A stretch of 64,000 nt of DNA from Alphaproteobacteria bacterium (lineage in GTDB: Bacteria > Pseudomonadota > Alphaproteobacteria > UBA828). The position numbers were made by a program, and so were the translations under genes. The notes under the pieces are model-generated. The model saw nothing but the letters and a program-made list of their open reading frames with translations. It ran no database searches and was not told the DNA's origin. Numbering within the stretch: position 1 is the first letter of the stretch; the number at the start of each line of letters is the position of its first letter. Shown here piece by piece: positions 1 to 17,601 of the stretch. The stretch spans positions 992,001 through 1,056,000 of the forward strand of contig CAXXMU010000001.1 in NCBI GenBank assembly GCA_963667785.2, given 5' to 3'.

Positions 1-2969
1 CCGGCCTCGATCCAGTCGTCCTCGTCCGTCGGGTCGGCGGAGCCCGCGTAGTACCGCACGTCGTAGTCGGTGAGCGGAGAATCATTAATGTCCGGCGGTA
101 TCCAGTTCACGCTCAGGCTGAGCGCGTCCGTCACCGCAGCCACCGACGGCGCAAGGGGAGCATCGGGCGGGCCCGGCCGGCTAACCCTCACCGGCATGTT
201 GGTGAAGCCGGCTACCGCTTGGCTGTCGATGTCGAGAATGTTGTTCGTCGTCTTGCGCGCGTAGCTCACCGTGACGGTCTGACCGCGCGTGATCGGATCG
301 GTTACGCTCACGGGGATGGTCAGCCGGTTGTCCCTGACGGTCGCTTTGGACAGCGGGGTCTTGTCGACCCCGTCCACGGCCACCGTGAAGTTGGTCTTGT
401 CGAGGCTGTCCGTCACACGGTTGAGACGGTGCAGGTCCTTGGTGAAATAAACGTACACCGCCTCCCCGGTGGAGGTAGTCTGCGCGCTCAGGAACCGGGC
501 CGCGCCGGTGTGCCCCTTGCCCGCCTCCGACCAGTCGCCGGCGCCCTCGCGGTTCGTCGCCCGCACCTGCGCCTCAAATTTGGCGCCCCGCATCAGGCCG
601 ACGATCGTGGCCGTCGTGGCGGTGCCGGTGTGGTCGTGCTCCGTCCACGCCGTGTCGCCCTCGCGCCGGTAGCGCACGTCGTAGTCGCTGACCGCCGGCC
701 ACGCCTCCGGGGCCGCCCAGGTCACGGTCAGCCTGGTGCCGTCCGTCTTCGACACCGTCGGCGCCGCGGGGGCGGCGGGAGGGGTGCCGGGATGGTTGGT
801 GTGGACCGCCATCTTGCGAGTCTTGGTAGCGGTAACCCACGTGTTAGAGCCGGCGGACGCCCGTTCGAGAGTCGTGTCGATGCTCCACCCGGGCGCGGCG
901 CCCGCATCCTCACCGGTCGAGTTCGTGGCCCTCCAGCCGACGTTGTCGTTCGCCCCGGAGGTCACGTCGAGGACCACCGAATACCGCGTACTGGGTTTCA
1001 GGTGGATGCCGGCGCCCGCGGCCGTGAAGCGGTTGGTGCCGGACTTCAGGGAGGCCGGATTCGTCAGCGTGCCGAGCAACTTTGAGCCATAAAATTCTTG
1101 GAGCTCCACTCGGTAGCCCGGCTTCGAGCCGGAGCCGACCTGCAGGTCCAGGTCGACGCCGGTCAGCGTGTAGCCGCCGGCGTGGCTGCCGGTGTTGACT
1201 GCCTGGAGGTGGTCCTTGCTGAAGCCGACATTGCCCCCGTCCGCCTGCCCGATATTGCTCACCACGGCCCCGCCCCCGGCGGAACCGCCGCCCCCCGGCG
1301 CGGCGCGCTTGTTTTTGGCGTGGATGCCGATCTTGAGGGCGCGGCTGGAATTCATCGCGGCCCACGAGGTGCCCCCCGAATCCCTCCAAAAGCCCGAGTT
1401 CGCGATGCTCCACCCCGCCGCCGCTCCGGTGTCCTCGGCGTCGGACGTCGTGACCTTCACCCCGGGCGGGTTGGCCCCGGCGCCGCTCGCGTCGACCACC
1501 ATCCAGTACTTTGTGCCGGGCTTCAGGTCGATGCCCCCGAAGGAGGCTTCGAACAGCTGGACCCCCGCGCTCAGCGCCGACGGCCTTCTCAGTGTGCCCA
1601 GGCTCCTGCCCGGCCTGCCGGACGAGTCCGAATAGATGTGCACCGCGTAGGACAGCCCCGCGTTCGATGCCGAACCGCTGAAGTCGATGTCGAGGCTCGC
1701 GCCGGTCAGCTTGTAGCCCGCGGCATGGTTCCCGGTCGTGAACGCCTGCGCGTGGTCGTCATTGAAATCCCTGCTGGCGCTGCTGTCGGTCGTCTGCGTG
1801 ATGTTGGCCACCACCGCCGCCCCCACCCGCGACGGGGAATCGTCGGCGCGCGCAGTGCCCCGGATGGCGAACTTCACCTTTGGGGATCTGGTCAGAAAAT
1901 TGTTGCTGCCGGAGCTGCGCGACGCGCTGTAGTTGGCAATCGTCCACCCCGCCGCCGCGCCGCCGTCCCGCTGGTTCGAATTGGTCCCCCATACCAGTGT
2001 GGTGCTGTCCGCCGTGCTGACGTCCAGCACCACCCAGTACGTCGTGTTGGCCTTGAGCGTGACAGCGCTGGAGGTCGTGAAGAGGGCGTTATGGTCGCCG
2101 CTTTGCGAGGTCGGGTTGGTCAGCGTTCTCAGGACAGTCCCCGGAAGGCCACCCCAGTTCGCCTCCGCGATGGAGACGGTGTAGACCGGCGTCCCGGTCC
2201 CGCCCCTCAATGCAAGCCACACGCCGGTCAGGTCGTAGCCGGGGGCGTGGCTGCCGGTGGTGAACGCCTGCGCCACGTCGTGGGCCATCGAAACCGTGTC
2301 GTCCGATGACTTGCCGGCGTTGCTCACCAGCGCCCCGCTGGCAAACGTGGGAATGCTGCCGCTGTACCCGGTGTCGTCGTCCTTGATCGTGACATGACAC
2401 CTGTCGTTCTTGCCCCCACGCATCCAATAGTCTCTCATCGTGATGGTGAAGGTCTCATCGCTTTCGTCGAGATCATCCTGTTTGGTGTGAAATCTAACCC
2501 GTCCTTTGTCGCCACCACCCCAAGTGTGCTGCGTGTTCACCACGTTTACGTAGTCGTTGGTGCCAGCGGTCCCCGCAATCGTATCGAACCAGCCGCCATA
2601 ACCATGTGAAGACGCCCTTTCGTGACGAACGACAACGTCGAACGACTCACCTTCGGTTACCACTATGGTGTTGGGCGACTCCCTGTGGTTGGATGACGTC
2701 GCGTCTGGTGGACATTCCAGGTAGTACCTCCCTGCAAAGGCAGGCTCCAACACGCCAACGGTCAACCCGACGAGCAGGCAGGCACCGGCGAGCCAGCGTT
2801 CGGCGCGGAGCCGCGGCGCGGGGGAACGCTTGAGACCCGCGCCCACAGCGCGCCGCAGCCGCGGCAGGAACCCGGCGAAGGAAGGGGAGGAAGCAGGCGC
2901 CGCCGGGCGGCGGAGAGGGGAATTCAGGCGGGAATAGCGCCTCCGCCGGACAGGGTGCGGGCGTCTCAT
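1..2969 (-). CDS. Large secreted multidomain adhesin-like protein, truncated by window start (long signal peptide, Calx-beta-like domain, 3 'VSNxxQ...AQxFTTG...GYxLTG' repeats resembling choice-of-anchor R, FN3, SwmB-like, FN3)
   Basis: Not in the ORF track; translated by hand from ATG 2969 (ATGA overlap with the stop of the upstream ORF). Reads MRRPHPVRRR...WLAGACLLVGLTVGVLEPAFA|GRYY...VTEGESFDV...DETFTITM...VTIKDDD, then LVSNAGKS..VAQAFTTGSHAPGYDLTGV, VANITQTT..HAQAFTTGNHAAGYKLTGA, FN3 (PAAPTVSKTDGTRLTVTWAAP..DYDVRYR..VRATNREGAGDWS) and VYFTKDL..GQTVTVSY. The frame at base 3 (WIEA) matches the frame of the start codon. Confidence 0.88.
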   Translation of the reverse strand, partial: MRRPHPVRRRRYSRLNSPLRRPAAPASSPSFAGFLPRLRRAVGAGLKRSPAPRLRAERWLAGACLLVGLTVGVLEPAFAGRYYLECPPDATSSNHRESPNTIVVTEGESFDVVVRHERASSHGYGGWFDTIAGTAGTNDYVNVVNTQHTWGGGDKGRVRFHTKQDDLDESDETFTITMRDYWMRGGKNDRCHVTIKDDDTGYSGSIPTFASGALVSNAGKSSDDTVSMAHDVAQAFTTGSHAPGYDLTGVWLALRGGTGTPVYTVSIAEANWGGLPGTVLRTLTNPTSQSGDHNALFTTSSAVTLKANTTYWVVLDVSTADSTTLVWGTNSNQRDGGAAAGWTIANYSASRSSGSNNFLTRSPKVKFAIRGTARADDSPSRVGAAVVANITQTTDSSASRDFNDDHAQAFTTGNHAAGYKLTGASLDIDFSGSASNAGLSYAVHIYSDSSGRPGRSLGTLRRPSALSAGVQLFEASFGGIDLKPGTKYWMVVDASGAGANPPGVKVTTSDAEDTGAAAGWSIANSGFWRDSGGTSWAAMNSSRALKIGIHAKNKRAAPGGGGSAGGGAVVSNIGQADGGNVGFSKDHLQAVNTGSHAGGYTLTGVDLDLQVGSGSKPGYRVELQEFYGSKLLGTLTNPASLKSGTNRFTAAGAGIHLKPSTRYSVVLDVTSGANDNVGWRATNSTGEDAGAAPGWSIDTTLERASAGSNTWVTATKTRKMAVHTNHPGTPPAAPAAPTVSKTDGTRLTVTWAAPEAWPAVSDYDVRYRREGDTAWTEHDHTGTATTATIVGLMRGAKFEAQVRATNREGAGDWSEAGKGHTGAARFLSAQTTSTGEAVYVYFTKDLHRLNRVTDSLDKTNFTVAVDGVDKTPLSKATVRDNRLTIPVSVTDPITRGQTVTVSYARKTTNNILDIDSQAVAGFTNMPVRVSRPGPPDAPLAPSVAAVTDALSLSVNWIPPDINDSPLTDYDVRYYAGSADPTDEDDWIEA

Positions 2970-4057
2970 GGCGTCATCCCCGCGCTGCGAATGAGGGTGC
3001 CGGAATTCGCCCCGCTATCCGTGCTGCGTCCGGGCCGATCGCCCTGAGGAGCAAAATGCGTGGCATCCGCGGTCTGAGCGGCCCGGCCTAACTCCGGAAG
3101 GTCGTTGCCATTCAGCGACGTTGACAATCCGGTCGGGTTCGCTGTCTTGTTTCCAGTCGCGTAGCGAAAATGGGATTTGTCGCTCGTGGCTGTAGCTGCG
3201 TTAGCGTGGCCAACGACGAGCATCCTTATGGGGCCGGAGTCGGTGCCGGAGACCTCTGAAAACGGTCCCGTCGTGCCGCTCGTCCGGACCAGTCGGTAGT
3301 TGGCAATGCTCCAGCCGGTGGTGCTCTCGGCGTCCTCGGCGTGGGAGGACGTGCCCGAAAGCTTGCCGCTCGATCCCTGGAGCACCACCCAGTACGTCCT
3401 GTCGGCAGCGAGCCGGGTGTCGGCGGGCGCTATGAAATAGACGTGGCCGCCGCCACTGCCCGGCGCCACCGCTGCGGTCAGGGTCGCAACCTCGGCGGTG
3501 TTGCCCGGCAGCCCCGTCGCCACTTTCGCGGTCATGCCGGTGGCGAGGTTGAAAACTTGCAGCTGAACACCGTCGAGGAGGTAGCCGTTGGGGTTGCTGC
3601 CAGTGATGAACCCCTGCGCAACGTCCGATGCGCCATAGTCAACTGTCAGGCCGGCCCCTTGATCGAAATTGCCCACCAGTAGCTGATGCGCCACCGCCGG
3701 CGCGGCGAGAGCGAGGGCCGCCAGCACGGCCAACGCCGCTGCCCAGGCGCCCAGGCGCCGCCGCTTGCTGCGGAAAGAGGAGAGGGAAGAAGGCCCCGCC
3801 GGACAGCGGAGGCGGAAGGTCAGACGGCGGGAACGGCGCTCCCGACGGGTGCTGCGCGCGCGGCCCATGGTGTCAGCCGCGCGGCCTAGAAGATGTCGAG
3901 GGAAGCCACCCTGCGAGCGGACGCAGGAGCGGCTCGGCTCGGCTCGGCTCGGCTCGGCTCGGCTCGGCTCGGCTCGGCTCGGCTCGGCTCGGCTCGGCTC
4001 GGCTCGGCTCGGCTCGGCTCGGCTCGGCTCGGCTCGGCTCGGCTCAATTATAATCAT
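2966..4057 (-). CDS. Secreted protein with one copy of the same repeat domain; start at 4057 (includes AEPSR repeat) or 3868
   Basis: Signal peptide GAWAAALAVLAALALAAPAVA followed by LLVGNFDQG..VAQGFITGSNPNGYLLDGVQL..TYWVVL..GWSIAN. The DNA at ATG 3868 is homologous to the start region of the downstream adhesin. Confidence 0.75.
   Translation of the reverse strand: MIIIEPSRAEPSRAEPSRAEPSRAEPSRAEPSRAEPSRAEPSRSCVRSQGGFPRHLLGRAADTMGRARSTRRERRSRRLTFRLRCPAGPSSLSSFRSKRRRLGAWAAALAVLAALALAAPAVAHQLLVGNFDQGAGLTVDYGASDVAQGFITGSNPNGYLLDGVQLQVFNLATGMTAKVATGLPGNTAEVATLTAAVAPGSGGGHVYFIAPADTRLAADRTYWVVLQGSSGKLSGTSSHAEDAESTTGWSIANYRLVRTSGTTGPFSEVSGTDSGPIRMLVVGHANAATATSDKSHFRYATGNKTANPTGLSTSLNGNDLPELGRAAQTADATHFAPQGDRPGRSTDSGANSGTLIRSAGMTP
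3931..4045. repeat. Perfect pentanucleotide simple sequence repeat (GGCTC)23 = (GAGCC)23 on the coding strand
   Basis: 23 uninterrupted units counted directly (115 bp). Confidence 0.97.
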
Positions 4058-4091: not shown

Positions 4092-4137
4092 AGCCTAATC
4101 GGACCCAAGGGCCTGCAAAATCCTGCAAAATTGAAGG
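4092..4137 (-). promoter_or_regulatory. Palindromic operator copy 1 (CCTGCAAAATTGAAGG, 4122-4137) plus -10-like TAGGCT (4092-4097)
   Basis: Matches a motif repeated at 5594, 10042 and 13458; 24 bp spacing to the TAnnnT hexamer. Confidence 0.65.
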
Positions 4138-4205
4138 TATCGGCAGCCCGCCGGGACCGCGCAGATCACAGCCGCGGGCTACGCCCCAGCACCGCCCGGC
4201 GGCGG

Positions 4206-5348
4206 TCAGCGCCGCGGCAGGGCGTCCGCCGCCAGCACCTGCCGCACCAGGGCGACCTGCCCCGACACGCCCAGCTTCCGGTAGGTCTGCTGGATCAGCC
4301 AGCGCACGTAGTTCTCGGACCAGCCCCCGACCGCGGCAATCTCGGGCACCTTCATGCCCTCGGCCAGCAACGCCGACACCCGGCTCTCCGACGGCGTCAG
4401 CCCGAGCATCGCCGCCACCCGCTGAGCGTCGATGCGCGGTTTCCGCGCCGGGTCGACCAGCAGCACCAGCGCCGCCACCCGGCGCCCGCCGAAATCACCC
4501 GCACCGTCACCCACCGGGCTCACGTGCAGTCCCAGCCGGGACCGGCCCGAAGGATGTTGGATCGTCATCGAACCGCCGCTCGGGACCTCCCCCCACAAGT
4601 CCGGCAGCGCCCGCCCCAGCAGTCTCTGCAGGCGGCTGCGGTCCGCCGGCAGCCAGGCCTCCAGTGCGCCATCGCGGTCGAGCAGCCCATCGCCGCGGCG
4701 CAGGATGTCCAGCGCCGGCCCGTTCGCCTCCAGCACCCGCCCGGCGCGGTCCAGCTGCACCACGCCGATGCGGTCGTTGGCGAGCAGGCCGGCGAGGCCG
4801 GCGCCCAGCGCTTCGGCCGCCGCCAGCGCCTGGCGCAGGCCGATGAACTGGCGGACATGCGGCAGCAGGCGCTCGACCAGCCGGACTCCGCCAGACTCCC
4901 AGCCGTCGCCGCCCTCGGGGTCGCCCAGCACCCAGACCACGCGCAGCTCGTCCGGCGCGCCGAAATGCACGGTCAGGCCGTTCTGCCCGCCCAGGCGGCG
5001 CCAGCCCTCGTTGTACGCGACCGACGTCTTCAGCTCCTCTTCGGTGTAGAGCTCCCGGGCAGGAGCCAGCCGGCCCTCGCGAAGCGCCATGCGCCGGCGC
5101 GGCGCCTCGTCGTGCGGGAAGTAGAGCTCGAAATATTCCTGCGCCATGTCCGGGCGATCGTCGCCGCGGTAGAGCAGGCGGGCGAAGTCGACGCGCTCGT
5201 AGTCGGCCCCGTCGCCGACCACCATGAAATTGCCGACCGCGCCGCAGGCCTCCTCGATCAGCGCGCTGGCCGCCGGCCAGTGGGCGTCGTCGCGCGCGGC
5301 CCGGTACAGCGCCTCCAGGATGCGCTGGAAGGCATCGTCCGGGTTCAC
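4206..5348 (-). CDS. LuxR-family transcriptional regulator with N-terminal sensor region, PAS-like segment and C-terminal HTH
   Basis: C-terminal LTPSESRVSALLAEGMKVPEIA...YRKLGVSGQVALVRQV is a LuxR/CsgD-type HTH; GVVQLDRAGRVLEANGPA is PAS-like; no receiver domain. Confidence 0.9.
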   Translation of the reverse strand: MNPDDAFQRILEALYRAARDDAHWPAASALIEEACGAVGNFMVVGDGADYERVDFARLLYRGDDRPDMAQEYFELYFPHDEAPRRRMALREGRLAPARELYTEEELKTSVAYNEGWRRLGGQNGLTVHFGAPDELRVVWVLGDPEGGDGWESGGVRLVERLLPHVRQFIGLRQALAAAEALGAGLAGLLANDRIGVVQLDRAGRVLEANGPALDILRRGDGLLDRDGALEAWLPADRSRLQRLLGRALPDLWGEVPSGGSMTIQHPSGRSRLGLHVSPVGDGAGDFGGRRVAALVLLVDPARKPRIDAQRVAAMLGLTPSESRVSALLAEGMKVPEIAAVGGWSENYVRWLIQQTYRKLGVSGQVALVRQVLAADALPRR

Positions 5349-5563
5349 GCCGCCTCCCCCCGGCGGCGCGTCCCCGCCCGTGTCACCCGCGAAGCGGATG
5401 GCTGAAGAATGGCGCCGTTACACACGCTTCTCCTCGATCCGGCAAATCGACCGGACTCCGAACTCCGCCCACCAGCCGTTCCGCAAACACTCGCGCCGGA
5501 CGCCCAACCGCGACGTCGGCGGCCGCTTGCCCGGACAGGCCCGGTGGAGGGTCGGCGCAGCGT

Positions 5564-5609
5564 TCCATACGCGAACCCGGGAAACGCTGCCACCCTTCAA
5601 AATTGAAGG
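5564..5609 (-). promoter_or_regulatory. Palindromic operator copy 2 (CCTTCAAAATTGAAGG, 5594-5609) plus TATGGA (5564-5569), upstream of the LuxR gene
   Basis: 7-2-7 inverted repeat, 24 bp from a TA-starting hexamer. Confidence 0.65.
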
Positions 5610-5982
5610 TATTGCGAAAAACGCGGCGGAAAAAAATGCGCCTATTCCCGGTCAAATTCCAGCGATGAGGGTCTATTGTGGCTTGGAGCTGGTTCGTGCG
5701 GCGCTATGGACGAAGCGCGGGATCACGGCCTTGAGGTTGTAGCGCAAGGCGACGCTGGCGAGGCAGCGCTCGGCAGGGTCGGCTCCGAGCTTACGCTGGA
5801 TTCCGGTGATCGCGCTCGTGATGTTGCCGAGCGTCATATTGGCAACGGACCCGGACCGGGAAAGGCGGATCCTCGTATCGCGGACGGGCGACACGGGCCG
5901 CCCGCGCCGATCGGTCATCCGGGTCCGGCCGCAGGAAGGCCCAGGTCTCGGCGCCGCGGACCGTCACCATGCCCGCCGTCCG

Positions 5983-8900
5983 CTACCAGCGGATCGCGCC
6001 CCTGAGCATGAGGCCGTGCTCGGGCGGCTCGTTGCCGTTGGCCGGCTCCGTGCGCATGCCGTCGAGGCTGACCTCGAACCCCGGATCGCCCTCCACCGCC
6101 GAGGTCAGCCGCCAGCCGATGCGGTACTCGCGCGCGGTGTCCGAGAGCCCGAAGCCCAAGTTGGGCGTGCCGGTGAAGCGGTCGCCGAACAGCGCCAGCC
6201 CGTAGCCCATCTCGCCCTGGAGGCCGCGCGACGCCTCGAACGTGCCGTCCGGCGCAAGGCCCTGCGCATCGCGCGCGCCCCACAGCCGCTCCGCCCCGCT
6301 CGACGCCGCGCCCAGCGTCGGGGCGAGCGAGAAGGAGAGCCCGCGCCCGCGCTCATTGGGCGCCAGGCGCACCGTGCCCGACACGCCCCATTCCTCGTAG
6401 TCCGAAGCCGCGTGCGCCACCAGCATCCGCGCCTTCGCCTCGACCGAGAGGCCGGTGCCCGGATCGGCGTAGCTCACCCCGCCGCCGAACTCGACCCCGG
6501 TCCCGGTCTCCGCGTCGCCGCCGTCATGGCGCAGCCCGAGCTCGAGAGACGGGCGCAGCACCGCGCCGCCGCCCATGTCGAACGCGCGGCTGCCCTCGAC
6601 GATCAGCCGCACCCGGTTCGCCGCCGCCGTCGTCCTGCCCTCGTTCGAGACCGGGTCGGACTCGGTCTCCACATGGAACGCGTCCGCCTTGAGCGCGAGG
6701 TCCATGACGCCGGTCTCGTCCTGCGTCAGCAGCGCGCCCCGGCCGCCCAACGCCGCGAGACGCATCGCGAGGTCGGTCCGGGTCGTCCGCTCCGGCTGGC
6801 CGCGGTCGTTCGCCGCCTGGGTAATGGTCATGTCGCCGGCGCCCCAGCCGGCCAGGCCCCACACCGAGACCCGGTCGGTCACCATGAACCGCGCATAGGG
6901 GCTCACGGTGGTCATCGTGCTCTCGATCGTGCCCGAGTCGACGCCCGGATTGTCGAAGCCGCCCTCGCCCTCGCTCACCGAGATGGCGACGCCGGCCAGA
7001 AGCCGGTTCCATTCCGCGTCCGCGCCGAGGATCCCGGTGGTCACGCTGCCGTCGATGCGCACCTTCCCCGTATCCGCCGGCGCCGCGCCGTCGAAGCCGC
7101 CCACCGTCACCCGGCCCCAGGCCGCAAGGCCCGGAGCGGCGCCGTCGCCGTCCCTGGCGAGATGGAACGCGCTCCCGAGCAGCAGCTCGCGGCCCGACAA
7201 CTCGCGCATCGGCGCGCTGCCGGACGCGGGCGCGCTATCGAAGGCGGGGGACCCGCCAGCGCCCGCTCCCAGGCCGGTTCCCGGCCAGCCGTCCCTTTCG
7301 GGCGCCGGCCCTTCCGACGCGCCCATGATCTGCGCGACCGAGGTCAGCGTCCGGCCGAGCCAGACATCGTCCTGCGTCTCCGCGAGATTGACGGTCTGCC
7401 CGCCCACCGTCACCTGCGCGCCCGAGAGCGGGCCGGCAAGCCGGTCGGAGACCGCCTCCGTCACATGGCCCGCCACCGTGCGCCCGAAGCGCGCGAGCCA
7501 CATCTTCTGCAGCGGGTCCGCGTTCTCGATCGTCCCCGTCGCCTCGCCGTCGGCGATCCGCGCGCCGCTCGCATTCGAGAGCCTGAGCGCGAAGGTCTCG
7601 CTTCCCTCGTCGAGCGCGTCGTCGAGCACCGGCACCGAGACGGTCTTCTCCGTCTCGCCCGCCGCGAAGGTGAGCGTGCCGCTGGTCGCGGTGTAGTCCT
7701 CGCCCGCCTTCGCCGAGCCGTCCGCCGTGGCGTAGTCCACCGTGACCGCGCCGGAGGCCGCCCGCGAGAGCGTCACCGCGAAGTCCACCGCCGGTTCTGG
7801 CCCGGGTCACGCGCTTCGCGCCCGTGACCCGCCCGTTGGTCGCCTGCAACGCCTCGTCCCTCAGTGTCTTGTAGCGAAGGGCGCCCGGGAAGTTCTCGCT
7901 GAAGCGCAGCTCGAAGCCGAACCGCCGGCCGTCATGCTCCGCCGGCACGCCAACGAACGACGCCGTCAGCGGCGGCGCTTGCGCCACCGTGTCCTCCACC
8001 GGCTCGGGGCCGAAGCTTTCGATCGCCAGACCGCCCGCGTCGCGCAGCGCCGGCCCGCCGGCAGGCATCGTGTAGACCGGCCTGACCGTCTGGCCCCGCA
8101 CCGGAGTTATCGAACACCGTTGCCAGCAGGCATTCGGATTCGCGTAGGCCACCGTGACCGTTTCGCCCGGCCGCACCGGCTCCGCCAGCACAAGGCCCAC
8201 CCTGTTGTCTCTCCAGAAGGCTTGCCGCGTCTCCCGGCGCTCGCCGCCGACCACCACCGTGTAGTCCGTGTGGACCCCCGCGGCCAGGACATCCCTGGAG
8301 AAGGCGAGCCACAGGCCACGCCCCTGTTCCTCCATCGCGGTGCTCTCCAGCCGGGCCGGGTAAGAACGGAACTCGATGGCGAAGTGCTCGAACTTCGGCA
8401 CGTCGGGATTGCCCTCGCCGGCGCCCTGGAGCGGGACAGAGGCCGGCTTGTAATAGGTCACGGTGGTACTTCGTCTCGCCGACGGCACCGCATCGGGAAG
8501 GGTGACCTTGACCAGCGACCCCGCGACCATCGCCGTGCCGATGCCGTAGATGTCGCGCCTGGGGAGGTTATTGGGAACGTCGGACGAACTCACCCGGAAG
8601 GCGCTCCCGGCCGGGCGCGACGCCTCGTTCAGTGCGCCGTCGAATTCCACCGTCAGCAGCGTCCCCGCCAACCGCGCCCGCAACGGCCGGGGCGCCGCGC
8701 CGTCGCCTGCCGTGCGGTTCGTCACCGCAAACTCCTGGAACGGCGGCGCCTCGGTGCCGCCGCCGTCCCTCAACACCCCGTCGTCGACCGCTTGGTAGCT
8801 CACCGTCAGCATCTGGCCGGCGCGGGCCGGCGGGGCCAGACTCAGCGTCGCTGTCGCGCCGCTCATGGAAACCGCGTAGGGATGCACCACGCCTTTGCGG

Positions 8901-9643
8901 GCGCCGGCCTCGACGTCGGTGCCCCGCACGGCGAGGGCGAACTTGAGATCGCGCGTGTCCACCGACCCGTCCAGCGCCTTGTCGAAGGTCACCGTCAGCG
9001 TCGCGCCGTTCACCGACCCGCTCACGGGCCGCGGTCCCGCCACACCCGTCACGCTGCCGTCGACCCTGTGCTTCGCGTCGCCCGACCCGGGCAGGCCGCG
9101 CAACGTCAGGTCGGCGGCCGCGCCCGTCCATGTGCCGACCGCCGTCCCCAGGAACAGCACTTTGCCGTTGTCGAACGTCTGCACCCACACCCCGTCCGGA
9201 TCCGCGTCGCCGGGCCTGACCGTGTGCTCGAAGCGCAGCAGCATGCCGTTCATATCGCTGTAGTCCGAGAGCACGATGCGGCTGTTGCCGGGATCGGCGT
9301 CGTCACGACCGAGGTCCAGCCGCAGACGAAGGGCGTCGCTGGTGACCGTTATCGGCTCGCTGAACACCACGTCGACCAGGATCTTGTCGCCCCGGACATA
9401 GGTGTCGTACGCGCCGTCGCCGTCCGCGTCGTGGGACGGCGCCGAGACGATCCGCACCTGCTCGATCGTCGGCCCGTCCTGCGCGCCGGCGGGCGCGGCG
9501 AACAGGATCGCCGCCAGCGCCAGGAGGACCGCCGGAACTCCCCGGTGCCACGGTAGAACGCCTCCGTCGCCACCGCTTCCTTCGGGCCGATGCTCGTCCG
9601 AATCGGGGCCGATAGTCCCAACTGCTTCAGAAAAACCTTCCAT
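5983..9643 (-). pseudogene. Disrupted autotransporter-like adhesin: N-part 9643..~7800 (signal peptide, SwmB-like repeats); C-part 7788..5983 (Calx-beta plus beta-barrel)
   Basis: The N-terminal frame degenerates after VTGAKRVT (~7805). The C-part starts mid Calx-beta (VDFAVTLSRAASGAVTVDYATADGSA..DY..SGTLTF) and ends in the BAM-type motif GLMLRGAIRW. Confidence 0.8.
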
Positions 9644-10012
9644 CCCCCAGGCAAACCCGTGAAACCATCTCCCGTGACGCGGAGAGCCGGCGGCGGTCGG
9701 CGGGCAGGCCGCCGCTGCTCGACATACCCTTCAGATCGCTGCGGTAGGTCTTGCCGCCACCGGCGCCAACGCGAACCGGTCCCCTCCGCCCGCGCGACCG
9801 ATCTCGCCCGTCGCCGGGCGGCGGACCGCAACGGCGCCGGTGGTCAGTGTCGTGGATGATTGGCTATGGGGCGTCGCTACCTACACGGCAGCTGAGTTGC
9901 GGTCGGACGCCGCGCGTCACCTGCCCAGTGCGAACTACGAACTTCAATCGGTACGCTGTTTGTCGCCCCCAGTCCGGCCCCTGATCGCTGCCGGCATTTC
10001 ACCAAAGGCAAC

Positions 10013-10057
10013 AGCGTAGATAAGCCCAAACTCCTGTAAATCCTTCAATATTGAAGG
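10013..10057 (-). promoter_or_regulatory. Palindromic operator copy 3 (perfect CCTTCAATATTGAAGG, 10042-10057) plus TTTACA/TACGCT promoter upstream of the autotransporter
   Basis: Perfect 16-bp palindrome, 23 bp from TACGCT (10013-10018). Confidence 0.65.
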
Positions 10058-10237
10058 TGGAGCTGCCACGCTTCGCGCCAATGCCAGCGCCGTTGGTGGA
10101 CCCGACGCCGCTGCTGCTGGGGGCACGGGTCGAAGGGATGAGCCTCCTCAACGGCGGGATCGTCTGCAATGTGGAGTTCCGTAGCGCGCCGCGGCCGATC
10201 CTTGGACTGGTCACGGCGAAACCGGCGGCCGAAGACG

Positions 10238-10744
10238 CTACTTCTGCCAGGTGCAGTCCGCTGTCAGGACCAAGCGGTTGCCCGGCAGGTGTTGCGCGTC
10301 GTAGGGGCATTGGCCGCTCAAGCCGACATACTTGCCGGTGCCGCCCAGCAATTCCCATCGGCCGGCACCGACGCTCCCCGCCTCGACCCCGCCGGCGCTT
10401 CTCTTCGCCCGCGCGTACCAACTGTCGCCGGAGGCATCGGCGAACGTGCAGGATGCCCGGATATCGGTGTCGGCCTCCGAAATCGTCGCATAGACTACGC
10501 ACGTCATGAGGTGAGCCGCTCCCTCGGCAAAGACTCCACCGCTACTCTGGAACACGGTGCTGGTCCCGGTCGAGCTGCCGCCGGTGACCTTCGCGCCGGC
10601 ATGGTCGATCGTCGTGTAGTCGTAAACGACGCTCATCAGCGCACGGAAACTGCCGCTCACCTCCGCCGCTGCGCCGTGAGTCCAGAACGCGAAGCCCATT
10701 GCAGCAATGGCCAACGCAGCTACCGTCATCCTTCCTGAATGCAT
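10238..10744 (-). CDS. Small secreted beta-rich protein with 4 Cys and a GGTG motif (allene-oxide-cyclase/dirigent-like barrel?)
   Basis: RBS GAGGAAAGGG before ATG 10744; signal peptide ending AAA|E; clear paralog of 59386..59889. Confidence 0.8.
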   Translation of the reverse strand: MHSGRMTVAALAIAAMGFAFWTHGAAAEVSGSFRALMSVVYDYTTIDHAGAKVTGGSSTGTSTVFQSSGGVFAEGAAHLMTCVVYATISEADTDIRASCTFADASGDSWYARAKRSAGGVEAGSVGAGRWELLGGTGKYVGLSGQCPYDAQHLPGNRLVLTADCTWQK

Positions 10745-11137
10745 CGCTGTCCCTTTCCTCAATGCCAGCCGATCGTGAGAATGGCGGGGTCGGCGCCTCC
10801 ATCGGCCGTCGAGAATGTGGCCGTGGCCCATCTCGCGCAGCCTCTCCTTCACGAGTTCGAGCTGAGCGCTCGCCTCGGTGAACTCTTGCAGATCCCTCAC
10901 GACCTGCGCCGGCGCCATGTTCACCCCGGCCCGGGCACTGGCGGGGGTGCCCGGCCATCTACAGGCGAACGTCTGTCCGCTGTGGGAAACGCCGACATCA
11001 TCCAGGCCGGTCTCCGGTGCCGCCGCGAGCTGCCTGGCGTCGGTGGCGAACTGCCCGATGCTTTGCCGAAGACCGAGAACCCTCTTCTTCAACCGACTGT
11101 ATTCCAGGAGCGTGTCGGCAGGCGCCGAGTCCATCAT
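10745..11137 (-). CDS. Hypothetical helical protein, in-frame read-through into the downstream secreted protein
   Basis: GAGGTG RBS before ATG; helical, charged sequence; no stop codon before 10744. Confidence 0.45.
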
Positions 11138-11347
11138 CTACTTCACCTCGTGCGATCGGTCTAAATGGCGGATCAAGAGGCCCAAGATCGCGAACCCGAT
11201 ACCCTTCCCGGCCGACGGCTGTCGCGACGGTCCCGGCATGGGCACGGGCCTTGCGTCGGGCAAGCTGCGCGTCATGGCCGAAGCCCCGCCGATGAAGCGA
11301 TTGATCGCCATCGATTATCGTGAACATGCTCGGCAATCGCGCCTGAG

Positions 11348-11881
11348 TTACCGCCGCAGGCGAATCCACAACCACCGGAGCGTGCCGACGGCCGCCGCCG
11401 CCGCAGTGGCGGCAATGAGCACCGTCTTGACCAGCGTGAACGTTGCCGCCAGCCATGCGAGCGGCGATGGCGACCCGGCATGGCTCAACGCCAGCCCCGC
11501 GACGGTCATGTTCTCCAGCATGTCGGCGGCCGCCATCGCGAGCGGCAGCAGAAAGAGCGGCGCCCCGCCCCGGAACAGGCGGAACAGCAGGATCGCCAGC
11601 AGCAGGCCGTAGGCGACGGGGAACGCCATGTCGATGGTGAGCCCGGTCGCCGCATAGACCAGCCTCGCGCTGGCGTCGAGCCGGTCGAGCCCGTCGAACA
11701 GGGCCGCAGCCTCGCCCGGCGTGTACCAGCCCCGGCTGTCCAGGAGCTCGAGGCCGCCCAGCCGCTGTTGCCGCCAGACCAGGCCCGCCACGCAGGCGGC
11801 GACGCCGGCCATTGCCGCGGCCGCCACCCGCCGGGTCGCGTATCGCCGCAGCGCCGAACGGATGAACATCGCCATCGCCAT
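11348..11881 (-). CDS. Hypothetical membrane protein (~4-5 TM)
   Basis: Several hydrophobic segments; D..FP..Y and AD..EN motifs. Confidence 0.7.
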   Translation of the reverse strand: MAMAMFIRSALRRYATRRVAAAAMAGVAACVAGLVWRQQRLGGLELLDSRGWYTPGEAAALFDGLDRLDASARLVYAATGLTIDMAFPVAYGLLLAILLFRLFRGGAPLFLLPLAMAAADMLENMTVAGLALSHAGSPSPLAWLAATFTLVKTVLIAATAAAAAVGTLRWLWIRLRR

Positions 11882-12169
11882 ACCCCGGTCGCAGCGGCTC
11901 GGCCAGCGGCATTCTCGCCACCCCTAGCCGAAGGCGCCAGCAGCGTGCCTCCGAACATGCCGCGGCGACATCGAGGTAGCTGGACACGGCGTTGTCATGT
12001 CCACCCTCGTGCCGTTAGTGGACTCGGTTCTGCACGTGGCGCAGACGGACGGATGGCAGGATCCCGAGCGGCGCTGCGCCGCGGCGAGCCCCCCGGCGAG
12101 GAGCGTCCTCGCTTTGGAGGTTTGACCGGCTCCTTGGGGCCCCTTTCGCGTGACTGCCGGCGCGGAGAG

Positions 12170-12290
12170 GGTGTGCGGCATTTTCAGGCGCCATGGCATC
12201 GCGGAGTCGTTCGGCGGCAGGCGCGCTGGCGGCCGCCCTCTCGCTCGCGGCCTGCGGCGGAGGCAGCGATACCGTGCCCCCCCCCCACAC
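12170..12290 (+). pseudogene. Deleted remnant of the 13668..14579 lipoprotein (leader and lipobox only)
   Basis: gcgctggcggccgccctctcgctcgcggcctgcggcggaggcagcgat matches ~13695-13742; joined at a C10 run (12277-12286) to sequence matching ~14725 onward. Confidence 0.7.
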
Positions 12291-12341
12291 AAACCGCGAC
12301 GTTGCCGGTGTCCACGATAACGGATCGAATTCGCGGGAAGA

Positions 12342-13070
12342 TTACGGCTGCGCTGCCTCTGTCGGCTGACCGGGAGTGCGCAGCGCGCCGAACACGCCCG
12401 CGAGGCCGTCCCGGTCGAAGGTGCCGGCTGCGCCTTCATGGTCCGCGCCGTAGAACGAGCCGTCGATATCCTGGGTCGCGCCCCCGAATGCGCCGTGGTC
12501 CAGGGTGAGCCCGGACCACGACATGTCCACCCGATCGTTGTCGAAGCTCGTGAGATCCACATCGACGGTCCCCGCCGCCAGGTCGACTTCCAGCCGCGAT
12601 TCGCCTTCCACCGGCGACGAGGTCGCTGTGGGCGTCGTCCCGGATTGCATGGCCTGCTTCTCGTAGGCACGGACAGCCCCGGTCCATACGGCGCTTCCGG
12701 CGGTCGGCGAGGTTCCCGATCGCTTGCCTTCCACCGATGCGACGATCGACCCGTCGAGCCCGGTATTCAGGTGTGCCCAGAATATGGGCTCGCCCGCGGG
12801 CGGACAGCCGATCGCCGTACAGGTGACCACGTCCGCACGCAGATCTCCTCCCCACAGTCCCCAGTTGTCGAAGTCGTGGTCCGGCGTGCCGTCGATCGCG
12901 GTAGTCCGGTACTCGCCCGTGGCGTGCAGCGTCGCGGTGGGAGGACTCATCGTCGAGCCGTCGCCCGACATCGTCGGGGAGACGCCGCTCCCCCCTCCGC
13001 CGCAGCCGGTCAGCGCCAGCGCGACCGCCGCGGCGATCGAAAGAACCAGTGGTGAGCAATTCATGGGCAT
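12342..13070 (-). CDS. Surface lipoprotein with TbpB/fHbp-like C-terminal beta-barrel
   Basis: Lipobox LTG|CGGGGSG; AVWTG; GSFYGADHEGAAGTFDRDGLAGVFGA terminus. Confidence 0.82.
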   Translation of the reverse strand: MPMNCSPLVLSIAAAVALALTGCGGGGSGVSPTMSGDGSTMSPPTATLHATGEYRTTAIDGTPDHDFDNWGLWGGDLRADVVTCTAIGCPPAGEPIFWAHLNTGLDGSIVASVEGKRSGTSPTAGSAVWTGAVRAYEKQAMQSGTTPTATSSPVEGESRLEVDLAAGTVDVDLTSFDNDRVDMSWSGLTLDHGAFGGATQDIDGSFYGADHEGAAGTFDRDGLAGVFGALRTPGQPTEAAQP

Positions 13071-13091
13071 GCCGCGTTACTCCTCATGCTG

Positions 13092-13125
13092 GCTCTAACG
13101 GGCCGAACGTGCTGCATATTGAAGA
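13092..13125 (-). promoter_or_regulatory. Degenerate operator copy 4 (GCTGCATATTGAAGA) upstream of the lipoprotein
   Basis: Partial match to the motif and to the flanks of copy 1; spacing is shortened. Confidence 0.4.
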
Positions 13126-13194
13126 TATCTTGGGCGACACTGTTGTCAGGCACACTCTGTCGATCTCCCCCCGCAATCCAGCCAGGTCGATGTG

Positions 13195-13254
13195 TCACCG
13201 CGCCGTTCGGTACAGCGACTCCAGGATGCGCAAGAAAGTATCGTCCGGGTTCAC
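13195..13254 (-). pseudogene. Truncated copy of the LuxR regulator (MNPDDTFLRILESLYRTAR*)
   Basis: Aligns to MNPDDAFQRILEALYRAAR at 5348; its upstream region (to ~13480) is homologous to 5349-5615. Confidence 0.85.
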
Positions 13255-13427
13255 GCCGCGTCCCCCCGGCGGCGCGTCCCTGCCGGTGTCGACCGCGAAG
13301 CGGATGGCTGGAGACCGGCGTCACTGCCCACGATACACCTCGCGCTGGCACTTCGATCGGCAACCGCTCCGGAGGACCACCGACCGCCGCAAGCCCGGAC
13401 AGGTCCGGTGCGGGGACCGCGCGGCGA

Positions 13428-13473
13428 AATCTAGGCGAAGCCCGGTAGTGCGGCCATCCTTCAAAATTGAAGG
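13428..13473 (-). promoter_or_regulatory. Palindromic operator copy 5 (CCTTCAAAATTGAAGG, 13458-13473) plus TAGATT (13428-13433)
   Basis: Identical to copy 2; 24 bp from the TAnnnT hexamer. Confidence 0.65.
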
Positions 13474-13667: not shown

Positions 13668-14579
13668 ATGAGACGCTATTCCGTGTGCGGCGTGGCGCTG
13701 GCGGCGACCCTCTCGCTCGCGGCCTGCGGCGGGGGCGGCGATAGCGTGTCCGAGAGGGCGCCCACATTGAGCGAGATCAGGGCGCTGACCGGCCTGTCGG
13801 CGCCGGTCGAGACGGCGGAGGCGGCGCAGGCGCGCAGCCTGGACATCTTCGCGCGCGCCGATTCCCTGATCCTGTCCACGATCCACGGGGAAACGGACAA
13901 TGCGGAGATTCCCACGTTCCGCCACACGACACAGTGCAGCGGATCGCGGTGCACCGTGACAGAGCCGCTGAGCGGCACCGTCGATACCATCGAGCTTGCC
14001 AACACCCCCCTCAGGCACGGCGCCGCTACCGCCATCGGCTCGAAGCACGGCATCACCCTGGTGTCGGAGGCCTCGGTCCATACGGGCGCGGACCTCGCCA
14101 GTCTCGGCGCCTGGCTGGAGCACGGTACGTTCGCGATCCTGAACGAGCGCCAGACCGGCGACGAGGGCACGGTCGACGTCTGGTACGGGATAATCGTGGG
14201 CGGCCTCACGGGAACCGCTCCGACCGGGCGCGCGACCTGGCTCGGCATCATGGTGGGAACGCCCGTCGCCGGGGAATCCCGCGGCGAGCGGCTCGTGGGA
14301 GACGCGGCCCTGACCTACGACTTTTCTTCCGGGGGCGGCGGGTCCGGGCCTTCCCTCGACGCCGCGTTCGGCGGGATCAAGAACATCGACCGCGGGGCGG
14401 CGCACACGGTCGAGACGGTGATCTTCTCCGACCTCGCGGTCGGTGCGGACGGGACCTTCGCGAGGGGCCAGTCCGGCGCGCGCATTCAGGGCGGCTTCCA
14501 CGGCTCCGGCCACGCCGAGGCGGCGGGCATCTTCGAGCAGTCCGACATCGTCGGCGCCTTCGGCGCGACGCGGCAGTAG
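13668..14579 (+). CDS. Surface lipoprotein with TbpB-like beta-barrel
   Basis: GGGAGG RBS; lipobox LAA|CGGGG; ATWLGIMVG; GGFHGSGHAEAAGIFEQSDIVGAFGATRQ. Confidence 0.85.
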   Translation: MRRYSVCGVALAATLSLAACGGGGDSVSERAPTLSEIRALTGLSAPVETAEAAQARSLDIFARADSLILSTIHGETDNAEIPTFRHTTQCSGSRCTVTEPLSGTVDTIELANTPLRHGAATAIGSKHGITLVSEASVHTGADLASLGAWLEHGTFAILNERQTGDEGTVDVWYGIIVGGLTGTAPTGRATWLGIMVGTPVAGESRGERLVGDAALTYDFSSGGGGSGPSLDAAFGGIKNIDRGAAHTVETVIFSDLAVGADGTFARGQSGARIQGGFHGSGHAEAAGIFEQSDIVGAFGATRQ

Positions 14580-16137: not shown

Positions 16138-16148
16138 TACCCTTTTCC

Positions 16149-17348: not shown

Positions 17349-17463
17349 GTCCGCCCACTCCCTCGCTGACCCCAGCGACGCCGCCACCGGCATCGCCCGT
17401 GCATCCGAGCCCGTGGCTTGCCTCTCCCGCCCGGTGGCCGAATCGGACCGAAGTTGTCCTGCG

Positions 17464-17601
17464 CGGGACCGGTCCCGGATTGCGGAAGCGGATCGCAACC
17501 GACTGGAAACGAATGCGCGCCAATCAAAACCTGTTTCTGCCGCCGATGCAACAGGAGAAAAACAGTGGGGTCAAAATTATTCAGGCGATATCAACCTGTT
17601 A
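17464..17601. promoter_or_regulatory. Putative att-arm region: 14-bp palindrome, 10-bp-periodic imperfect repeats and an IHF consensus site
   Basis: CGGGACCGGTCCCG (17464-17477); CGGAAGCG/CGCAACCG/TGGAAACG (17483-17511); TATCAACCTGTTA (17589-17601) matches WATCAANNNNTTR. Confidence 0.45.

Follow-up and report, generated by a model that had tools for sequence, protein, structure and literature searches.

The stretch of DNA analysed here (the window, 64 kb in all) carries a LuxR-type regulator gene among genes for large surface proteins, with integrase genes at the right edge of the island that holds them. The genes and reading frames are as follows.

3..2969, minus strand: second surface-protein gene of an operon (three choice-of-anchor R domains, fn3, SWM repeat), extending beyond the window; its start overlaps the upstream stop (ATGA)
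2966..4057, minus strand: gene for a secreted choice-of-anchor R domain protein, with a conserved start ATG at 3868 and a signal peptide ending in ...APAVA
3930..4045, minus strand: simple-sequence repeat, (CGGCT)x23 on the plus strand and (AGCCG)n on the coding strand, between the putative promoter and the conserved start codon
4206..5348, minus strand: regulator gene, 380 aa, with a GAF-like N-terminal domain, a long helix, a PAS domain and a C-terminal LuxR/NarL-type helix-turn-helix
5345..5425, minus strand: leader ORF, 26 codons, beginning at GTG behind the Shine-Dalgarno sequence GAGGAGA and ending in a TGA that overlaps the regulator GTG start (GTGA)
5983..9643, minus strand: large surface-protein gene with SWM repeats and Calx-beta, broken by a frame change near 7803-7808
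12342..13070, minus strand: gene for a lipoprotein with a TbpB-type beta-barrel (Slam-dependent-lipoprotein-like), downstream of a damaged palindrome
13102..13360, minus strand: remnant of a second regulator gene (leader plus the first ~39 codons), recognized by duplication and a 39-residue match at 13102-13254
14938..17498, minus strand: two tandem tyrosine integrase genes, 14938..16359 and 16149..17498, at the island's right edge

The C-terminal ~620 aa of the 5983..9643 product are 72% identical to giant proteins of two related loci (L001 and L005; see below). An earlier reading of the same DNA from its letters only (the sequence-only reading) had named an autotransporter behind the palindrome at 10042; no search supports that label, and SWM_repeat and Calx-beta domains were found instead. 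The window holds no tRNA genes, hence no tRNA-type attachment site for the island.

Between these genes lies a repeated 16-base motif, CCT(T/G)CAA-WA-TTGAAGG, a 7-2-7 inverted repeat. Searched across the whole 64 kb, the exact pattern CCTKCAAWATTGAAGG has four sites (4122-4137, 5594-5609, 10042-10057 and 13458-13473), compared with a mean of 0.00 in 100 dinucleotide-preserving shuffles of the window. The search tool lists five matches for these four sites because the perfect palindrome at 10042 scores on both strands. The sequence-only reading had described the same four copies as all intergenic and without further full copies, and each part of that description holds: all four lie between ORFs with coding signal, and the 64 kb contain no other exact match. 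When up to three mismatches were allowed, the window gave one poor match outside the known sites, at 31924 (5 matches in total versus 0.65 expected). All four palindromes share one orientation. The exact motif strings occur in none of the papers searched. We call sites upstream of a regulator gene type A and those past its stop type B.

5594..5609, minus strand: type A palindrome (exact pattern), putative operator, upstream of the regulator gene
4122..4137, minus strand: type B palindrome, putative operator, 69 nt past the regulator stop and ahead of the surface-protein operon
10042..10057, minus strand: orphan type B palindrome (exact pattern), a perfect 16-mer
13458..13473, minus strand: type A palindrome of a decayed second cassette (exact pattern and duplication)
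13100..13119, minus strand: damaged type B site, with the right half TTGAAGA intact, a conserved TATC (GATA) flank and a left half lacking one base

The last of these corresponds to a degenerate copy noted earlier at ~13110. A site had also been placed ahead of the lipoprotein gene; it is indeed present there, but damaged, with only one intact half-site. Two aligned segments, 5293-5454 with 13199-13360 (81%) and 5517-5619 with 13381-13483 (75%), bear out the claim that the copies at 5594 and 13458 come from one duplication. The supposed dead luxR copy is likewise genuine, as a remnant of the regulator's first 39 residues.

Downstream of each full palindrome on the minus strand is a candidate -10 hexamer, and past the first there is a further box.

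4112..4121, minus strand: ATTTTGCAGG box directly past the palindrome at 4122, read as a third half-site or as a -35-like element (most relatives have TTTACA here)
4092..4097, minus strand: -10-like hexamer TAGGCT, 24 nt past the palindrome; predicted transcription start ~4085
5564..5569, minus strand: -10-like hexamer TATGGA, 24 nt past the palindrome; predicted transcription start ~5557
10013..10018, minus strand: -10-like hexamer TACGCT, 23 nt past the palindrome; predicted transcription start ~10006
13428..13433, minus strand: -10-like hexamer TAGATT, 24 nt past the palindrome

These positions reproduce the 24, 24, 23 and 24 nt originally reported between palindromes and TA-starting hexamers. 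The hexamers are weak: TACGCT agrees with the consensus at 3/6 positions, and TATGGA, in the regulator's own putative promoter, lacks the usual final T, its column in the alignment of related loci being filled by TAGGTT, TAGAGT or TAGTTT. A TAnnnT hexamer stands 23-25 nt past the palindrome in 21 of 32 sites (9/16 type A and 12/16 type B, with TACGCT in nine of type B), versus 0.5% of 20,000 random positions, and ATTT(T)ACAGG comes right after type B sites. This spacing would centre the palindrome near -44.5, like NarL 7-2-7 sites; those at E. coli yeaR and ogt have centres of -43.5 and -44.5, just upstream of -35 (PMC10853779). A generic sigma-70 scan of 3800-14000, which needs at least 4/6 matches in each hexamer, called none of the predicted promoters and one unrelated site. 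Two other readings were dropped. One was a sigma-54 interpretation of the TGGCAG box past type A sites: judged by eye from the alignment, L006, L007 and L011 lack one base between GG and GC, and neither the window nor L004 has the GC element. The other was an FNR, FixK or CRP box, whose consensus half-sites have the opposite orientation to those of the palindrome.

To characterize the regulator we combined profile, structure and family searches. Its earlier description as a PAS-LuxR protein stands across 66 family members: Pfam GerE matches 64 of them (best 1.1e-11), and PAS_8, PAS and PAS_4 match 38, 23 and 17. The window copy itself scores 21.9 bits with GerE, just below the 23.5 cut-off (E=1.4e-4), and matches PAS_4 at residues 194-249 with E=0.081. 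Against the PDB, the family profile finds NarL, RcsB, GerE, VraR and EL222 at about 2e-7 over residues 317-373. An AlphaFold model (pLDDT 88.4) comprises an N-terminal alpha/beta domain plus a long helix, a PAS-like fold at 185-300 and helices at 308-376. Foldseek matched the model to VqmA, EL222 and the ligand-binding domains of CviR, TraR and RhlR, with a TM score, normalised by target, of 0.65-0.72 for the CviR and VqsR ligand-binding domains. An Atlas search with residues 1-180 gave unnamed clusters with weak GAF and Autoind_bind leads, the latter at 0.92 in a cluster with PF03472 on 25% of members; Autoind_bind (PF03472) itself matched 0/66 family members at E<=0.1. Response_reg has no match in the regulator and, in keeping with the earlier claim that the window lacks a LuxI or kinase, neither these nor a receiver domain was found among the 48 window ORFs scanned. 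The family is very large: at E<=0.001 it takes in 12,856 representative clusters, at 1e-30 still 291, and its members are annotated merely as 'helix-turn-helix transcriptional regulator'.

Modelled as a homodimer, the regulator reached an ipSAE of 0.57 versus 0.00 for the best of three controls, part of which may reflect likeness to solved dimers, since dimers of LuxR-type DNA-binding domains are already among solved structures. In calibration, the ipSAE mark was reached by 20/30 proteins solved as one-chain pairs and by 1/23 solved as single chains. The homodimer runs had at least 82% of contacts in common, with a partner pLDDT of at least 82, and the modelled interface consists of helix 169-189 and the last helix of the DNA-binding domain.

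We compared the window with 13 related loci (L001-L013) from uncultured Alphaproteobacteria-like genomes, giving 14 regulator genes, a small sample in which some loci are paralogues from a single genome (L002, L002b, L012; L001 contributes two copies). The palindrome keeps two fixed places in these loci, ~200-260 nt upstream of the regulator gene and ~70-100 nt past its stop, the second preceding a giant surface-protein or lipoprotein gene. A scan of relatives for the motif, proposed in the sequence-only reading, shows it to be non-randomly distributed: 209,059 nt of non-redundant related loci contain 9 exact sites, 18 at up to one mismatch and 24 at up to two, whereas the means over 30 first-order Markov simulations were 0, 0 and 1.03. 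At the upstream place, 8 of the 14 regulator genes have a site with at most two mismatches; in L001 and L005 the same alignment column holds a variant palindrome, CCTCCC(A/G)NNTGGGAGG; L003 and L009 have degenerate sites, and L010 and L013 have none. The type A element also keeps its GATA and ATGGCAG flanks in the same place as in the window. At the post-stop place, ten of 13 assessable loci have a site at up to two mismatches, L001 and L005 have the variant half-site, and L003 has no site. Perfect palindromes make up 7/13 type A and 4/15 type B sites, type B being consistently asymmetric.

The motif accompanies the regulator gene in genomes labelled as different orders and flanks even truncated gene copies; the whole cassette recurs, duplicated and truncated or decayed, in several related loci. 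Clear secreted or surface proteins stand behind 9 of 16 type B sites, while six precede decayed leaders or unrelated genes and one more meets a contig end. The notion of a regulon is overstated, as what is seen so far is a local cassette. A tblastn search of plasmids returned 74 records, all below 60% identity and one covering at least 80% of the query, and gained no extra close loci.

The half-site sequence changes together with the recognition helix. We defined a helix class by the residue before Y in the helix GW.E-x-YVRW. Class N (or T) pairs with half-site CCTTCAA (window, L004, L007, L011, L010 and L008), class S with CCTGCAA (L002, L002b, L006 and L012), and class D, accompanied by T-K four and five residues past Y (an L-T-K-Q stretch), with CCTCCCA (L001 and L005), so that class and half-site agree in 12/12 assignable pairs. 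A tree built from residues 1-305, which excludes the DNA-binding domain, pairs L006 (S) with L011 (N) as sisters (support 0.986), puts the L002 pair (S) in a clade of its own (0.977) and does not make sisters of L001 and L005 (D). Half-site and helix have thus changed together in non-sister lineages, for which descent alone is an insufficient explanation. The changing positions align with RcsB K180 and with RcsB K187/NarL K192, which are base-contacting residues (PMC5758874, PMC10853779). Among 87 close homologues parsed of 120, N is found 58 times at the class-defining position, S 10 times, D 8 times and T 5 times, and D is accompanied by T-K in 7/8. The promoter-proximal half of type B sites is (T/G)(T/G)GCAGG regardless of helix class, so the co-variation is carried by type A sites together with the distal half-sites of type B.

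The 16-base palindrome is very probably where the neighbouring LuxR-type sensor-regulator docks, as predicted from sequence. This protein appears to govern its own gene and the adjoining large surface-protein genes, both here and in related uncultured bacteria. We put at roughly 0.75 the probability that the adjacent 380-aa GAF-like/PAS/LuxR-HTH regulator uses the palindrome as its operator and activates both sets of genes. The operator half of this proposal, made earlier for the 4206..5348 gene, is well supported by the position conserved across 13 loci, the spacing to -10-like hexamers, the co-change of half-site and helix, and the predicted symmetric dimer. A regulator dimer would set one recognition helix on each 7-bp half-site. 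The site would end 2-3 bp upstream of a -35-like box, with its centre near -44.5 and the -10 hexamer 23-25 bp downstream. The type A promoter would drive the regulator itself (autoregulation) and the type B promoter, past the regulator stop codon, a secreted giant repeat protein or lipoprotein gene, both presumably being activated once the sensor domains bind a signal. Regulator, two operators and target gene would then make up one cassette, which in the window sits inside the integrase-bounded island.

The same dimer on the same site could instead act as a repressor or autorepressor, blocking RNA polymerase or its alpha-subunit beside -35 until released by a ligand. A position near -44 is by itself compatible with activation or repression, and type B promoters have a near-consensus -35-like TTTACA, so they might fire unaided. 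In type A promoters, however, the -35 region (TGGCAG) is poor and the -10 hexamers are weak, as is typical of activator dependence. Overlap with the interval from -35 to +1 is commoner for repressor sites, and the geometry of the palindrome equals that of NarL-activated yeaR and ogt. We consider repression unlikely. Much less probable still is binding by another transcription factor encoded elsewhere, for which the LuxR-type gene would be merely one target. The type B proximal half-site is independent of helix class, as such a factor would allow, but the motif moves with the regulator gene across order labels and stays beside truncated copies, and the half-site co-changes with recognition-helix residues in non-sister lineages.

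Readings that dispense with a regulatory protein fare worst. A hairpin in RNA or DNA, as a terminator past the regulator gene or an attenuator, would suit a type B site ~70-100 nt past the regulator stop that is followed by ATTTT, and compensatory changes do keep type A palindromic (the 7/13 perfect sites). As RNA, though, the 16-mers fold weakly (mean MFE -5.9 kcal/mol in type A, -3.4 in type B), the 2-nt centre is too short for a loop, type B is asymmetric, transcription is predicted to start downstream of type A sites, and a terminator scan of 3800-14000 gave 0 hits, with nothing from Rfam; we regard a hairpin as highly implausible. We give as little credence to the palindromes being recombination sites at which island recombinases excise or rearrange the regulator cassette. 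The two tyrosine integrase genes at 14938-17498, the duplicated and truncated cassettes in several loci and the common orientation of the window copies would all fit, but a 2-bp centre is unlike tyrosine recombinase core sites, and recombination offers no role for the conserved -35/-10 spacing or the helix co-change.

Taking the palindrome as an operator, its closest counterparts in format are the NarL sites at yeaR and ogt, which are likewise 16-bp sites, two inverted heptamers separated by 2 bp, bound by dimeric LuxR/NarL-type helix-turn-helix domains (here predicted). The heptamer sequences are unrelated, and unlike NarL, a phosphorylated response regulator with a receiver domain, the window regulator has GAF-like and PAS domains and no receiver. 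Streptomyces PimM, PteF and CfaR are described as one-component PAS plus LuxR-HTH proteins that bind the 16-bp palindrome CTVGGGAWWTCCCBAG, located at the -35 region of target genes nearby (PMC9774167). They share the PAS domain fused directly to the LuxR helix-turn-helix and the 7-2-7 format, but are about 190-220 aa long with one PAS and control antibiotic gene clusters, whereas the window regulator has 380 aa and its family candidate surface-protein targets. The window family further differs in its extra N-terminal domain, long dimerisation helix, half-site and Alphaproteobacteria-like hosts, and we saw no close sequence relationship between the two. VqmA (of Vibrio and phage) and EL222, both top Foldseek or profile matches, also join PAS or LOV to a LuxR-type helix-turn-helix and act as dimers, gated by ligand or light, at DNA palindromes. 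With one sensor domain each, they have a length of about 200-250 aa, and the match covers the last ~200 regulator residues at 16-20% identity. TraR, CviR, RhlR and SdiA are dimeric activators whose palindrome lies beside or overlaps -35, and their ligand-binding domains are fold-level matches. The regulator differs from acyl-homoserine-lactone LuxR receptors in the lack of Autoind_bind matches across the family and of a LuxI among the scanned window ORFs; the lux box, CTG-N10-CAG, is 20 bp long, compared with 16 bp for the window site.

Mechanistically nothing here is unprecedented, and the value lies in a well-defined, testable new system rather than a new principle. A very large unnamed LuxR-type family can be tied, at least provisionally, to a DNA site, a promoter geometry and a target class (surface lipoproteins and giant repeat adhesins). 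Helix class and half-site pair naturally, which amounts to a small recognition code that could predict operators for hundreds of homologues.

Two leader reading frames add possible layers of control. The NTGA overlap at the regulator start is found in 12 of 13 sequences, and a leader ORF of 24-27 codons preceded by a Shine-Dalgarno sequence in seven. An Rfam search of 1-18000 at E<=1 yielded nothing beyond a chance IRES_mnt match (18.4 bits versus a gathering score of 100), so the leaders are without a known RNA element. Ahead of the adhesin gene, the (AGCCG)n tract sits inside a second leader frame that begins at ATG 4057. Tracts of 5-mers or 7-mers, (AGCCG)n or (AGCCGAG)n, in 10-16 copies occupy the same place in L001, L004, L005, L006 and L007, inside a leader frame in four of them. 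Their unit is not a multiple of three and, as in contingency loci, stands in a reading frame or promoter region of a surface-protein gene. Compared between genomes, with one assembled sequence each, the leader frame is fused in frame to the choice-of-anchor R protein in the window, stops 4 nt before the adhesin start in L001 and overlaps that start in L005 and L006. A literature search on LuxR, PAS, adhesin and phase variation found nothing relevant.

More speculatively, and with distinctly less confidence than in the operator itself, these elements might form a self-contained, horizontally mobile 'sense-and-stick' module with three layers of control. In the first, a ligand-gated, positively autoregulated GAF-PAS-LuxR dimer would act on a private operator whose half-site code (N to T, S to G, D/K to C...C) has perhaps been rewritten several times. 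In the second, the leader peptide would be translationally coupled to the regulator start codon. In the third, slippage of the (AGCCG)n or (AGCCGAG)n tract would shift the stop of the second leader frame relative to the conserved adhesin start and so switch giant-adhesin translation heritably among three states (fused, coupled or occluded). If real, the module would give bistable, phase-variable surface display in uncultured Alphaproteobacteria-like bacteria; environmental members of this group may use repeat-based adhesin switching, which has been studied mostly in host-adapted pathogens. Neisseria Opa proteins carry (CTCTT)n in the leader peptide. In H. influenzae, HMW1A has (ATCTTTC)n in its 5' UTR and undergoes repeat-driven phase variation (PMC12721329). 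In these cases as here, repeats of 5 or 7 nt separate the promoter, putative in the window, from the mature portion of a large adhesin. The window tract differs from them in lying in a separate leader frame, whose stop position relative to the adhesin start is set by the repeat number.

The 7-2-7 palindrome CCT(T/G)CAA-WA-TTGAAGG is predicted to be the operator of the 380-aa GAF-like, PAS and LuxR-type helix-turn-helix regulator encoded beside it, a reading to which we assign a probability of about 0.75 on the basis of linkage, joint change of half-site and recognition helix, and dimer symmetry. Across the 64-kb window, CCTKCAAWATTGAAGG is found in exact form at 4122, 5594, 10042 and 13458, against 0.00 occurrences expected from shuffles; allowing up to three mismatches added a single match at 31924, and a poor one. 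Because the window is ~70% G+C, a chance origin of this A+T-rich 16-mer is improbable. On the plus strand, GGT(A/G) follows all four copies, and TATC or TAAC follows three of them. The neighbouring genes are all coded on the minus strand; there, TA-starting hexamers begin 24, 24, 23 and 24 nt past the palindromes. Both the four copies and these spacings had been reported by the sequence-only reading and were reproduced, as was its degenerate copy near 13110: at 13100-13119 the flank and one half-site are preserved, and the other half lacks one base. The same reading derived copies 5594 and 13458 from one duplication and described a dead luxR copy; the duplication was recovered (81% identity over 162 nt, 75% over 103 nt) and also preserves, as a remnant, the first 39 codons of the regulator.

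The copies lie in an island occupying positions 1-17,500, beyond which the window carries ordinary metabolic and transport genes. Its features are:

4206..5348 (-), regulator gene
ending at 2966 (-), directly 3' of the regulator, secreted choice-of-anchor R protein
extending off the window (-), second, larger surface protein with choice-of-anchor R, fn3 and SWM repeat
9643..5983 (-), SWM-repeat and Calx-beta gene
13070..12342 (-), TbpB-barrel lipoprotein, behind the damaged site 13100-13119
13668..14579 (+), second TbpB-barrel lipoprotein gene
14938..16359 and 16149..17498, two tandem tyrosine integrase genes at the right end of the island

The integrase genes are partly similar to each other (76% identity over 88 nt); no tRNA gene was found in the window and no clear attachment-site repeat at the integrase edge (14938-17498). 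An earlier description of gene 9643..5983 as an autotransporter found no support in any search, the domains being SWM-repeat and Calx-beta. Relative to the giant proteins of two related loci, L001 and L005, this gene has a frame change near 7803-7808, which is either a pseudogene mutation or an assembly error, and about 60 residues of those proteins have no counterpart in it. The giant proteins have a common C-terminal part of ~620 aa (72% identical). The proposal that a palindrome precedes a lipoprotein gene held in that 13070..12342 does lie behind a site, but that site is damaged; on the 13668..14579 side of the 13458 palindrome, no TAnnnT was seen at the expected distance. The lipoprotein genes and their surroundings contain two direct repeats (12223-12279 and 13695-13751, 57 nt, 89% identity; 12267-12431 and 14713-14877, 165 nt, 85% identity), which suggest paralogous surface lipoproteins in the island. 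Both 57-nt copies encode a lipoprotein signal peptide on the plus strand, the second inside 13668..14579 and the first within 12342..13070, opposite to that gene, where it could be part of a plus-strand paralogue that is not annotated.

A scan of genome contigs yielded 13 related loci (L001-L013). Their non-redundant sequence (209,059 nt) contains 9 exact copies of CCTKCAANNTTGMAGG, 18 copies at one mismatch or fewer and 24 at two or fewer, compared with means of 0, 0 and 1.03 in Markov simulations, and the sites fall into two conserved contexts. Type A sites lie ~200-260 nt 5' of the regulator start, in the order A/T tract, gcGATA, palindrome, ATGGCAG, ~17 nt and TAG(G/A)(G/T)T. Among 14 regulator genes (window and L001-L013), the type A site is present at two mismatches or fewer in 8, is degenerate in L003 and L009, and is absent from L010 and L013; in L001 and L005, a different, equally symmetric palindrome, CCTCCC(A/G)NNTGGGAGG, occupies the same alignment column. 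Type B sites lie ~70-100 nt 3' of the regulator stop (cGATA, palindrome, ATTT(T)ACAGG, 13-14 nt, TACGCT) and occur at two mismatches or fewer in 10 of 13 assessable loci, with the variant palindrome in two and none in L003. Right after the regulator stop in L003 (11230-11681), the sequence turns from G+C-rich to A+T-rich and differs in character, possibly an insertion or assembly join. Decayed leaders or unrelated genes follow 6 of 16 type B sites, and one site is cut by a contig end.

TAnnnT lies 23-25 nt past the palindrome in 9/16 type A and 12/16 type B sites; random positions show it in 0.5%. The site lists include near-identical L001 duplicates and L002 and L012 paralogues, so that not all sites are independent. 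As a predicted promoter, type B reads TTTACA, 16 nt, TACGCT; the palindrome stops 2 bp short of the -35 box on its 5' side and is centred at about -44.5. The -10 hexamers are weak, and a generic promoter scan calls none of them. In excerpts of PMC10853779, NarL 7-2-7 sites are centred at -43.5 (yeaR) and -44.5 (ogt), the same geometry as type B, and an excerpt of PMC9774167 describes Streptomyces PAS-LuxR proteins with the same format, a 16-bp palindrome at the -35 region. We lean towards the regulator acting as an activator; repression instead is a less likely but serious alternative.

Over residues 317-373, the profile of the regulator's family aligns with the DNA-binding domains of NarL, RcsB, GerE, VraR and EL222 (~2e-7). 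Among 66 family members, the GerE model matches 64, PAS models match 38, 23 and 17, and Autoind_bind matches none. In an AlphaFold model (mean pLDDT 88.4), residues 1-145 form an N-terminal alpha/beta domain, 152-177 a long helix and 185-300 a PAS-like domain, followed by the four-helix DNA-binding domain. Foldseek matched the model to VqmA, EL222 and phytochrome sensor modules, and also to the ligand-binding domains of CviR, TraR, RhlR, SdiA and VqsR; for residues 1-180, the Atlas gave only unnamed clusters with weak GAF and Autoind_bind leads. The family is large: at E<=0.001 it counts 12,856 representative clusters, and at 1e-30 it counts 291. Each of the 120 closest homologues shares at least 67% identity and is ~380 aa long; the few that bear source names come from Rhodospirillales, Alphaproteobacteria and other MAGs and are called 'hypothetical protein' or 'helix-turn-helix transcriptional regulator'. 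Modelled as a homodimer, the regulator reached an ipSAE of 0.57 (runs 0.60, 0.57 and 0.51; best of three controls, 0.00); in calibration, the mark was attained by 20/30 proteins solved as same-chain pairs versus 1/23 solved as single chains. The runs had at least 82% of contacts in common and a partner pLDDT of at least 82. The predicted interface is formed by helix 169-189 together with the final helix of the DNA-binding domain. Since LuxR-type DNA-binding-domain dimers have already been solved, part of this score may reflect likeness to them.

Linkage is one line of evidence: the motif flanks the regulator gene in genomes labelled Alphaproteobacteria, Rhodobacteraceae, Paracoccaceae, Defluviicoccus and Rhodospirillaceae, as well as in one 'Gammaproteobacteria' bin, and likewise flanks truncated copies of the gene. 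In the recognition helix GW.E-x-YVRW, the residue before Y (x) follows the half-site: N (T in L008) with CCTTCAA, S with CCTGCAA, and D, plus T-K four and five residues past Y, with CCTCCCA, consistently in 12/12 assignable pairs. A tree of residues 1-305, which excludes the DNA-binding domain and the truncated L009, L012 and L013, places L006 (S) as sister to L011 (N; support 0.986) and the L002 pair (S; the second a paralogue) in a separate clade (0.977); L001 and L005 (both D) are not sisters. On this topology, helix and operator shifted in concert on more than one occasion. Both of the varying helix positions align with RcsB K180 and with RcsB K187/NarL K192, which contact bases or are required for binding according to excerpts of PMC5758874 and PMC10853779. 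Among 87 parsed of the 120 close homologues, 58 are N, 10 S, 8 D and 5 T, with D coupled to T-K in 7/8. Counting against the operator reading, the promoter-proximal half of type B is (T/G)(T/G)GCAGG in every helix class; it may be constrained by the adjoining -35-like box, or be a weaker generic half-site.

That half-site and helix change together is hard to reconcile with a different transcription factor reading the palindrome. A hairpin role is improbable: as RNA, the 16-mers form weak hairpins (mean MFE -5.9 kcal/mol for type A, -3.4 for type B), type B is consistently asymmetric (4/15 perfect), type A sites precede the predicted transcription start, and neither a terminator scan nor Rfam gave a match. 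Were the palindrome a recombination site, the promoter spacing would be left unexplained. Extra regulator-cassette copies, full, truncated or nearly erased, occur at L001 6323-7443, L002 1974-2332 and 8142-9371, L003 2-877 and L012 9913-10798, and palindromes still flank each; the cassette duplicates and decays within genomes.

The operator reading would involve a mechanism of known kind, a LuxR/NarL-type dimer on a 7-2-7 site beside the -35 element, and the PAS-LuxR one-component architecture is also known. The regulator is not a NarL-type response regulator (it lacks a receiver domain), an acyl-homoserine-lactone receptor (no Autoind_bind domain, no nearby LuxI) or a member of the short Streptomyces PAS-LuxR group (length, domains and operator all differ). 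A literature search, with ~1.7 million PMC articles outside its reach, found no paper on the family or motif. New here are the family-specific predicted operator together with a small recognition code, a conserved cassette that includes giant adhesin genes, the two leader reading frames, and the repeat tract.

This tract, a simple-sequence repeat, separates the type B promoter from the conserved adhesin start codon (context CTGAC(G/A)CC-ATG-GGCCG):

window 3930-4045, (AGCCG)x23
L001 about 11391-11467, (AGCCGAG)x11
L004 from about 10320, (AGCCG), at least 10 copies, cut by contig end
L005 about 11405-11484, (AGCCG)x16
L006 about 9963-10027, (AGCCG)x13
L007 about 11401-11450, (AGCCG)x10

L002 and L013 retain relics. 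An upstream frame with a strong Shine-Dalgarno (GGAGGAG, 7 nt, ATG) spans the repeat in L001, L005 and L006; L007 has ATT in place of ATG. This leader frame is fused in frame with the adhesin in the window, ends in L001 at a TGA that lies 4 nt ahead of the start, and runs beyond the start, overlapping it, in L005 and L006. All three phases are thus present among four genomes, one sequence each, as would be expected of slippage of 5- or 7-nt units, making the repeat a candidate phase-variation switch.

At the regulator itself, the start codon is directly followed by A (NTGA) in 12/13 sequences, and in 7/13 a 24-27-codon leader frame with a Shine-Dalgarno ends at this TGA:

5345-5425 (-), leader ORF in the window, in the same place in L001, L002, L005, L006, L008 and L011

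The overlap of leader stop and regulator start suggests translational coupling. The regulator leader region also contains a conserved block, CCGGGCCTGTCCGGGC, ~30 nt past the -10 hexamer.
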